NCBI GenBank assembly: GCA_963734495.1
Contig: CAVTHK010000007.1
Location: 208,036-272,035 of the forward strand
Direction of reading: 5' to 3'
DNA from: an uncultured Spirochaetota bacterium
GTDB lineage: Bacteria; Spirochaetota; Spirochaetia; SZUA-6; CAVTHK01
Length of the DNA: 64,000 nucleotides
Positions within the stretch are counted from its first letter, which is position 1, and every line of letters starts with the position of its first letter. This document shows positions 30,001 through 33,000 of this stretch, in pieces. The position numbers are program-made.

Positions 30001-33000
30001 GTCACGATTCAAGCGGCGGGTCGATCGCAGCGCGCCGCGGCCCGCCGCGGCCGGGGGATGGTGGCCGATGGACTTTGTGCCCGAGATGCGGAGAAAGGCG
30101 AGCGGCAACCCTCGCCGGCTGGTGCTTCCCGAAGGCGAGGAGCCCAGGATCTTCAAGGCGGCGCGAAGCCTGCTCGACGAAAAGCTGGCGGCCGAGGTCG
30201 TGCTGCTCGGCAGCCGCGACGGCATCGCCGCGAAGGCGAAGTCCGAAGGCGTGAGCCTCAAGGGCATCCGGATCGTCGACCCGGCAGTCCTCGCCGGACC
30301 GGGACGCGTTCGTCGACGAATACTACGAGCTGCGCAAGCAGAAAGGCGTCACCCCCGAGCAGGCCCGCGAGGTCATGACCGGCGACGTCCTGCACTGGGG
30401 CGCGATGATGGTCCGACGCGGCCAGGTCGACGCGATGGTCGGAGGCGTCATCAACCCGACGGCCAAGCTGCTGCGCGCGGCCCTCGCCGTCATCCGGACG
30501 AGCCCGGGCACAAAGGTCGCCTCCTCCTGCTTCGTGATGTGCCACCCGGACCGCAAGTGGGGCGTCGACGGCCACATGATCTTCGCCGACTGCGCCATCG
30601 TCCCCGACCCGGACGCGGAGCAGCTCGCGGAGATCGCAATCGCCTCGGCCAGATCCTGCCGCTCGTTCCTCGGGCGCGGAGCCCGTGGTCGCCATGCTCT
30701 CCTTTTCGACCAAGGGGAGCGCCGAGCACCCCAGGGCGGAAAAGGTGAAGGAAGCCGTTCGCATCGTCAAGGAGCGCGCGCCCGACATGATCGTCGACGG
30801 CGAGATGCAGGCCGACGCGGCGCTGATCCCCTCGGTGGGCGCGCAGAAGGCGCCCGGCTCGCCGGTGGCGGGCAAGGCGAACGTCCTCGTGTTCCCCGAC
30901 CTGGGGGCCGGCAACATCGGCTACAAGCTGGTGCAGAGGCTCGCGGGCGCCGAGGCCTACGGCCCGTTCCTGCAGGGCTTCGCGAAGCCGGTGAGCGACC
31001 TCTCGCGCGGGGCCTCGGTCGGCGACGTCGTGAACACGGCGGTCGTCACGCTGGTCCAGGCGCTGGGCTGACGCCTTCCGGGAGCGCCGGGACCGTGCCG
31101 ATGCAGACGGGGCCCGGCCGGCGGCTGCCTTCAACTTGCCTCCGTAGGCCCGAGCGGATAGACTTTCCCGCATGAAGGCGCTGCTGGTCGGCTACGGGAG
31201 CATGGGCCACGAGGTGGAGAAGGTGCTCGCGTCGCGCGGGCACACGGTCGCATCGCGCGTCGACCCCGTCGGGGGCGACGTGCCGTCGCTCGATGCGGTC
31301 AAGCCCGGTCAGGCTGACGTCGCGATCGAGTTCTCGCTGCCGGCGGCGGTCGTGGACAACGCCCGGCAGTACGCGCGGATCGGGCTGAGCGCGGTCGTCG
31401 GCACCACCGGCTGGTACGATCGGCAAAGCCGAGGTCGAGCGGATCGTCAGCCGGGTCCTCCATCGGCTACCTCTACGGTCCCAACTTCTCGCTCGGGGTG
31501 CACATCTTCTACAGGATCGTCGCGGCGGCCACGCGCCTCGTGAACCCCGTCGACGAGTACGACATCCTCGGCTTCGAGATGCACCACAAGCGCAAGAAGG
31601 ATTCGCCTTCGGGCACCGCGCTCGCGATCGCGAAGGTGATCCTGGACAACGAGCGTACGCAAGAAGCGCGTCGTGACCGAAAGGCTCGACCGGGCGATCG
31701 AGCCCGAGGAGCTTCACTTCGCCTCCGTGCGCGGGGGCACCTACCCCGGCGTGCACACGGTGGCGCTCGATTCGGCGGCGGACACGATCGAGCTCACGCA
31801 CACGGCGCGCACGCGCGGCGGGTTCGCGGTCGGCGCCGTCATGGCCGCGGAGTGGCTGGGGCGCCGCAAGGGCTTCTTCGCGGTGGACGCGTTCGTCGAC
31901 GAGATCTTGAAGGCCTGAAGGGCCCCCCAAGAGGGGGCTTGGGACCTGACGAGGACGTCAGGGAGGGCCCCTCGGAAACTCGGGGCTTGGGGCTTGGCGA
32001 AGACGCCAACGAGGGCCCCTCGAAGACGTCGGGGCTTGGGACCTGACGAGGACGTCAGGTCATAGGAGGGACACATGTTCAAGGGAGTCTACACCGCGCT
32101 CGTGACGCCGTTCCACGAGGACGGCAGCCTGGACGAAGCCGCCCTTCGCAAGCTCGTCGACCTGCAGATCGCGGGCGGCGTCGCCGGGCTCGTCCCGATG
32201 GGCACGACGGGCGAGAGCCCGACGGTCGACCACGGCGAGCACACCGAGGTGATCCGCATCGTCATCGAGCAGACGCGCGGCCGTGTGCCGGTGATCGCGG
32301 GCACGGGGTCGAACTCGACGCAGGAGGCGGTCGACCTGACCGTCCGCGCCAGGAAGCTCGGCGCGACCGCTTCGCTGCAGGTGAGCCCCTACTACAACAA
32401 GCCGACGCAGGAGGGCCTCTACCGCCACTTCACCAAGGTCGCCGACGAAGGCGGGCTGCCCGTCATCGTCTACAACATCCCCGGCCGCACGGGCGTCACG
32501 GTGGAGAACGAAACGATGCTGCGCCTCGCGGCCAACAGGAACATCGTGGGCGTCAAGGAGGCGACCGGCAACATGCCGCTGGTCCTCGACCTCATGCGGC
32601 GCAAGCCGGCGGATTTCGACGTGCTCTCCGGCGACGACAACATCACCTTCCCCCTCATCTGCCTGGGCGGCGTGGGAGTCATCTCCGTCGTGAGCAACCT
32701 GACCCCGGCACCGGTGGTGGAGATGGTGGCGGCCGCGCTCAAGGGCGACGTGGCGAATGCCCGGCGGCTGCACAACCGGCTCTATCCGCTGTTCAAGGGG
32801 CTGTTCATCGAGACGAACCCGATCCCCGTCAAGGCGGCGATGGCGATGAAGGGGCTGATCAAGGCCACCTACCGCCTGCCGATGTGTCCTCTCAGCCCGC
32901 AGCACCAGAAGGAGCTCGAAGGGATCCTCAAGGAGCAGGGGCTCCTGTAGGCCCCGGGTCGCCGGCGCCGGCGACCCGCGCCCGCGAGCGCGTTCGCGAG

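Follow-up and report, generated by a model that had tools for sequence, protein, structure and literature searches.

A two-hairpin repeat that docks on the Shine-Dalgarno sequences of dozens of unrelated genes in one spirochaetal genus

Introduction

Why do dozens of genes of unrelated function carry the same small hairpin cassette at their ribosome-binding sites, and how did it come to be there? The question is raised by the dapB-dapA junction of an uncultured Spirochaetota bacterium, which lies in the window analysed here, a stretch of 64,000 nucleotides (C7:208036-272035) from a genome of 5.38 Mb that is 83% complete and has a G+C content of 68%. An earlier note on this DNA had described the cassette as a mobile element aimed at the upstream edge of the Shine-Dalgarno sequence (SD). 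The spread of repeats such as MIRU, REP2 and the transposase-less REPs is presented as a long-standing question in the portions of PMC3184786 and PMC3733652 that were available. The present genome makes this question testable, since its repeats have a junction resolved to the base, occupy sites that are filled and empty in reciprocal fashion, and come with three sister targets. What has to be explained is which enzyme is involved and how a working ribosome-binding site is told from the idle AGGAG motifs, which are four-fold commoner.

A three-unit array between dapB and dapA

On the forward strand of the window, dapB (31172..31918) is identified by Pfam matches to DapB_N and DapB_C and ends with a TGA stop codon at 31916-31918; it is read as two ORFs (31172-31543 and 31673-31918), and the frameshift that splits it is probably a sequencing indel. 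The AGG that follows at 31919..31921 would represent the first half of the original SD of the next gene. This position is target-derived in the empty and filled pairs found elsewhere, and at dapA the assignment is only indirect because the site is also filled in the congener. Three tandem units then occupy 31922-32066, with starts at 31922, 31967 and 32015 and thus periods of 45 and 48. Both internal units are delimited by profile and sequence; the first (31922..31966) consists of hairpin 1, a TTGGGA linker, a 7-bp hairpin 2 and the junction G-AGG, and the second (31967..32014) measures 48 nt. The terminal unit (32015..32066), delimited by profile, sequence and pairing, comprises hairpin 1, the linker CTTGG, a 9-bp hairpin 2 (GACCTGACG-AGGA-CGTCAGGTC at 32040-32061, with the loop G-AGGA-C), the dinucleotide AT and an AGG that the element appears to supply. 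Judging from the family comparison, this AGG joins an AG of the target to form a rebuilt SD (AGGAG, 32064-32068), which together with a 6-nt target-derived spacer fills 32064..32074. The ATG at 32075 opens dapA (32075..32950, forward strand), a member of the DHDPS family (Pfam PF00701, E 4.5e-98). In the only congener, an uncultured Spirochaetales genome of which 2.72 Mb (about 51%) was examined, the dapA site had been regarded as empty; it is in fact filled by a diverged array, and the copy in the window is consequently an old insertion.

A second locus of the window lies on the reverse strand (36377..36458) and was recognised by profile and sequence as a long-form unit, in which a third hairpin is nested in the loop of hairpin 2. 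It is flanked on the left by AGGAG (36458-36454) and followed by a weak SD, GAGGGTG, and an ATG at 36371; the protein encoded downstream has only a weak Pfam match to HEAT_2. The sequencing-run listing holds 16 DNA rows with shares of 0.05-0.15, and in four DNA sequencing runs, represented by short pieces only, none of the joints listed crosses either window cassette. One 190-nt read piece with 24 gap letters extends over 36275-36488, which is a hint at most.

A repeat family on Shine-Dalgarno sequences

Across the genome, a first profile returned 75 matches of at least 8 bits, with scores of up to 11.7 bits in a reversed-genome control, and a second profile, built from 25 copies trimmed before the SD, gave 74 matches in 52 loci, with control scores of up to 10.8 bits. 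Although the profile had been trained without the SD, an SD-type motif stands at the 3' end of 43 of the 49 loci that score at least 11 bits. By eye, the six others are one coding chance match, two copies whose weaker SDs escaped the pattern, and three loci that belong to sister families. Gene leaders, defined by a start codon 5-8 nt after the SD and an ORF of at least 60 codons with coding-type codons (gene calls being rough and taken from our own codon model), make up 37 of the 43 SD-ending loci, or 37/49 overall, against a background of 551 among 2584 other non-coding AGGAG motifs (21%) and 305 among 928 AGGAGG motifs; one contig end and one early frameshift are among the six loci that fail the rule. 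The distance from SD to start codon is also narrower than in the background, being 5-7 nt in 34/37 cassettes versus 353/551 AGGAG leaders. The genes are unrelated, as the earlier note had stated: of the roughly 53 loci known from the two genomes, 20 had their downstream protein scanned, and 14 of these 20 have Pfam matches, nearly all to different families, including dehydrogenase, aldolase, kinase, RidA, Rnf, Fe-S assembly and carbamoyltransferase. The docking of a two-hairpin repeat on the SDs of dozens of unrelated genes is thus confirmed.

The element measures about 51 nt and extends from GCCCC to GTC-NN-RGG. Terminal units are composed, in this order, of hairpin 1, a linker close to CTTGG, hairpin 2 with the loop G-NNNA-C, two variable bases and RGG. 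In internal units hairpin 2 is cut short by its last bases, and the units are joined via (G)AGG. Arrays occur in 12 of the 43 loci, with a spacing of 48 nt in 9 of 16 cases. The 3-4 fixed bases that had been placed between the 9-bp hairpin and the SD proved to be two variable bases, AT in 22/43 loci. In the long form, a third hairpin is located inside the loop of hairpin 2 (5 cases by pattern, more by eye).

Hairpin 2 had also been credited with covarying pairs. In 17 aligned copies, 94% of the cells are paired (5-37% when the alignment is slid), three of the nine pairs have changed on both sides and none on one side only, and 8 cells are compensated versus 3.4 +- 1.3 in shuffles. The pairs of 42 copies, a count that includes two rows mis-paired by the script, comprise 358 Watson-Crick, 3 G-T, 7 A-C and 10 other combinations. 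Folded RNA is expected to tolerate G.U pairs; given that these are not in excess and that one-sided changes are absent, the constraint resembles that on a DNA palindrome, which suggests that it acts on DNA rather than RNA. The covariation therefore stands as evidence for a palindrome and not for an RNA structure. As for function, folding gives the cassette no predicted advantage in translation: the SD is unpaired to the same extent with and without it (0.50 vs 0.50, P 0.92), and for a footprint that takes in 8 nt upstream the predicted opening cost is 16.3 kcal/mol in its presence vs 13.3 kcal/mol. No Rfam family matched at the gathering score in 5 loci, and the window stretch gave one chance match (E 2.9).

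Empty and filled sites

An ortholog is available in the congener sample for 18 of 41 sites of this genome, and at 15 of these the cassette is missing. It is present in both genomes at two sites, the diverged array at dapA and a carbamoyltransferase gene at which hairpin 2 stands alone, and one more congener site is a probable deleted remnant. Conversely, the congener, said before to hold 4 copies, has at least 12 loci in the roughly 51% examined, many of them of a sub-family with 10-bp stems; eight of 12 have an ortholog here, of which two are filled and six lack the cassette. Further change is visible in a close relative, represented by a metagenome contig (L097), which carries two short units where this genome has one long unit, the protein identity being 97%; different modules at the same site imply that turnover continues. 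The earlier claim of mobility is upheld by these three lines of comparison.

At six of the 15 sites that are filled here and lack the cassette in the congener (s4, s8, s15, s25, s27 and s35, by eye), the alignment of the two genomes reaches the SD from either side; the other nine align loosely at best. The reciprocal site L210, filled in the congener and empty here, has a clean junction with its 6-nt spacer retained. In all seven clean pairs, the old SD has been split as NGG|AG; its first three bases lie to the left of the element, and the spacer in front of the start codon is retained. At s15, for instance, the AGG on the left and the AG plus 7 nt on the right are the same in both genomes, and at s4 the old SD was CGGAG and the left flank is CGG; the junctions at both sites fit GG|AG better than a repeat of AG. 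The SD is thus the target, as had been proposed and as the 37/43 gene leaders indicate, but the cut falls inside it and not at its upstream edge. The intergenic region is replaced or unalignable at L239, L215, L112, L134, s0, s5, s17, s28 and s32, and the congener locus L054 does not form a clean pair with its cassette-free ortholog here.

The two flanks of the element were also compared over the whole family. Left triplets, called in 35 of the 43 loci (8 uncalled) by a search pattern that requires their GG, are AGG in 18, CGG in 12, GGG in 3 and TGG in 2 cases, and right triplets are AGG in 33 and GGG in 8. All 12 left CGG are paired with a right AGG, and in most loci the first base differs between the two sides; since these first bases are not matched, the target is not duplicated. 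Moreover, the SD spacers of cassettes resemble one another no more than SD spacers picked at random do; they therefore belong to the target, and an element that carries its own spacer or start codon is ruled out. Taken together, these comparisons establish the dispersion of the repeat, its polarity, its junction and its gain and loss by lineage, all with no true duplication.

Sister families and distribution among genomes

The SD-bound element is accompanied by related hairpins, 115 non-coding matches to the G-NNNA-C hairpin being present in this genome. Family B forms branched arrays of 80-350 nt, and a promoter of the form TTGnnn-N16-18-TAnnnT lies within 55 nt downstream in 18 of its 27 loci, compared with 5.4% of random non-coding positions and 3/27 on the other side; the motifs used for this family were chosen by eye from such loci, with the promoter contained in none of them. 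The base that precedes TTG is C in 15 cases and G in 3. Among the 7 orthologs shown, 6 lack the array, and by eye the -35 box is for the most part conserved. Family D is tied to stop codons, 24 of 93 copies of an 11-mer standing exactly 7 nt after TAG (0/22 in the congener sample); the hairpin is missing from all of 7 orthologs, 3 of which use TGA as their stop codon. Read in hairpin orientation, all three families place their 3' end on a signal (SD, -35 box or stop codon), a pattern suggestive of small mobile elements that spare their host by targeting the signals of gene expression.

A covariance model, with the best 62 candidates scored per genome, found the SD family in 2 of 92 genomes of the order, with 52 matches here and 7 in the congener; on this basis the family is confined to one genus. 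A strict two-hairpin pattern had 0 matches in GTDB genomes, metagenomes and viral contigs, collections from which the source genome itself was possibly excluded. A loose hairpin-2 pattern retrieved 19 + 19 loci from public collections, of which two are true cassettes, the metagenome contig L097 and L077, which is the same sequence as the congener locus L036; the remaining 36 were set aside as terminators, coding sequence or unrelated palindromes.

The search for a mover

As reported before, no Y1 transposase was found in this genome (83% complete) or in the congener, while 15 of 31 genomes of the order have one. RAYT was likewise found in neither genome; TnpB was not found, and IS607 was represented only by short N-terminal helix-turn-helix matches under the NF033518 cut-off. 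With no resident serine transposase, Y1 or TnpB having matching ends, a derivative of IS607 or IS200/IS605 was rejected. Y2 (IS91-type) genes are present and had been offered as a lead, which was not sustained: two Y2 elements contain no cassette match of 3 bits or more, their origin-like ends are unrelated and are not followed by GGAG or CTTG, and a genome of the order with 16 IS91 matches (G009) is cassette-free. A non-autonomous IS91/ISCR derivative was dismissed accordingly, as its ends and target tetranucleotide are not shared with the resident Y2 elements. Some family-B-like hairpins in the 5' region of a Y2 element and its derivatives may be a lead of their own. IS110 was discarded too; it has 5 near-identical copies, four in the first 15 kb of C1, and the copy inspected lies inside an attC-like repeat and has unrelated ends. 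An ORF of unknown function flanked by repeats was sought among 6 close pairs in 106 repeat loci, and none was found. A MITE is not favoured either, for the ends GCCCC and RGG have no terminal repeat beyond chance and there is no target-site duplication, nor is a free-standing GTAG-REP family, since the scan for GTAGA plus hairpin yielded 93 matches that are mostly coding chance.

Mechanism and alternatives

The reading that we prefer is that of a non-autonomous mini-element, about 51 nt long, that represents one sub-family within a superfamily of G-NNNA-C hairpins specific to the genus and would be copied into the SD at NGG|AG in a single orientation. The NGG of the target would stay on the left, and the terminal RGG of the element together with the AG of the target would give RGGAG, as far from the start codon as the SD had been before. 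Because the SD is rebuilt at its old spacing, the gene would keep its initiation site and the insertion would be nearly free of cost. Arrays and nested third hairpins may arise from further cut-and-join events or from slippage at hairpin feet and loops. Mobility with rebuilding of the SD is likely. Against it weigh the small share of clean pairs (7 of 21 cassette-free orthologous sites), the divergence among the copies, with a mean identity of 71% and 86% to the nearest neighbour, and the dependence of the comparison on a single congener.

How the element moves is a separate matter. It may travel as folded single-stranded DNA in the manner of REPs, an HUH-type nick leading either to strand transfer or to templated copying, and the enzyme would be unassembled, lost or unrecognised by current profiles. 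Such a single-strand, REP-like route into NGG|AG has about even chances. In its favour, CAAG, GTAG or NTAG is found on the bottom strand at hairpin feet (the nested third hairpin has GTAG in several long forms, hairpin 1 has CAAG or variants of it, and the stop-codon family has NTAG); against it, this foot tetranucleotide is variable, whereas REP guides are conserved, and the junction has a GG core and not C|T. Nor does single-strand accessibility account for the choice of SDs, a cause that is too weak: when [AC]GGAG sites are weighted by it, the share of SDs rises from 13% to only 22-23%, versus 37/43 observed. Given that a 5-nt target plus accessibility is insufficient, that spacers are narrow and that no gain for translation is predicted, we infer that the start codon is part of what is recognised in the target. 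Pairing with the target would then reach past the pentamer to the start codon, as donor and recipient have SD and start codon at like spacing.

The same polarity could also be produced with no enzyme at all, if, in the course of replication or repair, a nascent strand that has copied the start codon and SD switched to a locus with like signals, copied its hairpins and returned at a GG microhomology, switches within hairpins giving rise to perfect palindromes, arrays and nested modules. Such template switching would account for the polarity, for a donor RGG combined with a target spacer, for the narrow spacer range, for pure Watson-Crick compensation, for mosaic modules and replaced intergenic regions, and for the failure to find a transposase. 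In the absence of an enzyme, however, a match of 5-8 bases should very rarely suffice for a switch from one distant locus to another, and the restriction to one genus as well as the retention of G-NNNA-C loops would be left unexplained, so that we regard this scenario as unlikely. If insertion instead took place at any GG|AG, the SD copies might be those kept as helpful 5'-UTR RNA, in the form of an insulator, a stabilising hairpin or a protein site such as a CsrA loop. The cassette does lie between promoter and SD in the 8 loci with a consensus promoter no more than 90 nt away, CsrA is present in both genomes, and dapA and the carbamoyltransferase gene bear cassettes in both. Yet the unchanged SD accessibility and dearer footprint predicted above, the lack of G.U pairs and the unrelated downstream genes argue against retention, AGGA forms the loop in only 7 of 22 SD-adjacent G-NNNA-C hairpins, and copies away from SDs should be seen, given that sister repeats are tolerated elsewhere; this makes the idea quite improbable.

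Dependence on the start codon would be accounted for if targeting took place at the RNA level, with element RNA joined to the initiation region of an mRNA, or an enzyme brought there by the initiating ribosome, and a return to DNA by reverse transcription. RT domains do exist (4 matches here and 1 in the congener), but the stems bear no RNA-strand signature and family B stands upstream of -35 boxes, outside the transcript, and we consider this route very improbable. A last alternative, an ancestral cis-regulatory RNA of a regulon that was lost from many genes of the congener, could draw on the two of 18 orthologous sites filled in both genomes and on the third that is a probable remnant. The site L210, with its clean reciprocal junction, already goes most of the way to refuting it. 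The other clean pairs also have their junctions within the SD, each genome has gained cassettes that the other lacks, the family is absent from the 90 other genomes of the order (best 62 candidates per genome), the genes are unrelated and Rfam had nothing at gathering score in the 5 loci; we hold this alternative to be highly improbable.

Returning to the signal-sparing mini-element, its sister families allow a broader proposal that we put forward as a doubtful possibility. One set of hairpin modules would have sub-families that each end in the first half of a signal (RGG for the SD, TTG for the -35 box and, on the opposite strand, TAG for a stop codon), enter this signal and restore it. What they recognise would be working signals and not bare sequence, either because pairing extends as far as the start codon or the -10 box or because they follow the ribosome or RNA polymerase; their mover would lie outside current transposase profiles, and the SD branch may span many phyla. 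Should targeting of working signals be true, mobile DNA would have a safe-haven strategy of a new kind, and there would be a way for dozens of 5' leaders and promoters to be remodelled together. An element of 50 nt that enters an SD and leaves it intact could also serve as a tool.

Relationship to described repeats

In IS91/ISCR elements, a terminal hairpin precedes a short end motif that matches the target, and tandem multimers are formed. The cassette resembles them in both respects, its terminal hairpin standing before a short target-matching end and its units forming tandem multimers, and differs in that the two resident Y2 elements contain no match to it and that G009, with its 16 IS91 matches, has none. 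A literature search of partial coverage brought up no described element that splits and rebuilds SDs, nor is there one in the available text of PMC2700814. The two-hairpin repeats Neisseria REP2 and Borrelia IR-A/IR-B, which according to the accessible part of PMC3184786 lie upstream of unrelated genes and end in a ribosome-binding site, are similar in design. REP2 is described there as a sequence of 120-150 bp that carries promoter, RBS and ATG, unlike the element studied here, which brings only half an SD, takes spacer and start codon from the target and has promoters upstream of the cassette.

The likeness to REPs and BIMEs is closer. These are short (20-50 nt), G-C-rich palindromes with many intergenic copies, clustered, mosaic and species-specific, in the accounts given by excerpts of PMC8266576, PMC3733652 and PMC6006769, and the bottom strand here has NNAG at hairpin feet. 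The excerpt of PMC8266576 describes a foot tetranucleotide and a cut at C|T, with priming and strand transfer both possible; GTAG REPs often supply TAG stops, as stated in that of PMC3733652, and family D on its TAG stops resembles them. On the other hand, these excerpts place REPs for the most part downstream of genes and give their tetranucleotide as conserved, whereas the element here is fixed on the SD with a varying foot motif and a GG-core junction, and no RAYT or Y1 gene, flanked by repeats or otherwise, was found in the 83% complete genome or in the congener. MIRU repeats, in turn, measure 40-100 bp, have about 40-50 copies and insert at translation starts with little harm to genes, as far as the consulted portions of PMC3184786 and PMC12548453 describe them. 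The unit size, the tens of copies, tandem arrays, intergenic position and G-C-rich internal inverted repeats are all found here, as are empty and filled orthologous sites, and in both cases the mover is unnamed. The tetranucleotide direct repeats of MIRU and its small ORF coupled to the gene at -4, mentioned in the same portions of PMC3184786 and PMC12548453, have no counterpart in our element, which makes no true duplication, is read through by the upstream CDS in only 4/43 loci, has an ATG of any kind in 11/43 and spares the SD as its signal. We conclude that this is a real, genus-specific mobile mini-element of REP/MIRU-like type, distinct in its exact junction, its dependence on the start codon and its sister families.

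Sister hairpin families in the source genome

Arrays of family B, one of two sister families of G-NNNA-C hairpins, end at the TTG of sigma70-type -35 boxes in 18 of 27 loci of the source genome, and these arrays of branched hairpins have modules in common with the cassette. Five of the loci are given here as examples: C13:152012-152292 (-), C7:143894-144007 (-), C16:28956-29036 (+), C16:86399-86558 (-) and C5:127939-128045 (-). The second sister family, D, is associated with stop codons, as a TAG is followed after 7 nt by the hairpin in 24 of its 93 copies, and such an arrangement was not found in the congener sample (about 51% of that genome). 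TGA serves as the stop in three of seven orthologs of genes bearing family D. Examples of this family are the copies at C1:781234, C5:129828 and C10:37440 (all +), and one copy in the window (36550-36560) has the other orientation.

Individual cassette loci

The second cassette of the window, a long form (36377-36458, -), is flanked by a full AGGAG on its left side and by a weak Shine-Dalgarno on its right side. The 3′-terminal part of the upstream gene at C9:368308-368393 (+) holds an in-frame cassette of 78 nt, and the source genome still has the ATGA stop/start overlap that the congener shows. In the congener, the leader of a deaminase-like gene (L134:7435-7600, -) carries two terminator-like hairpins, then a cassette variant and then the gene; the region upstream of the source-genome ortholog is unrelated to this leader. 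Frameshifts split many source-genome genes genome-wide, including dapB (window 31172-31918), and probably stem from assembly indels.

Known mobile elements in the two genomes

Five IS110 copies with near-identical scores occur in the source genome (C1:1-15000 and C9:22199); the one copy that was read lies within an attC-like repeat that belongs to a cassette array. The congener Y2 transposase gene (L240, C59:6100-8500) lacks its 5′ end, is joined to an unrelated gene on the opposite strand, and is followed 3′ of its stop by a 73-nt tandem duplication. In the source genome, the 5′ non-coding region of an IS91-like Y2 element, here family C, is present ten times (C18:53766, C1:859498, C3:56165, C5:28115, C5:71464, C5:94991, C11:812231, C11:497681, C12:134 and C12:13921); most copies are devoid of the Y2 gene, and some contain family-B-like hairpins.
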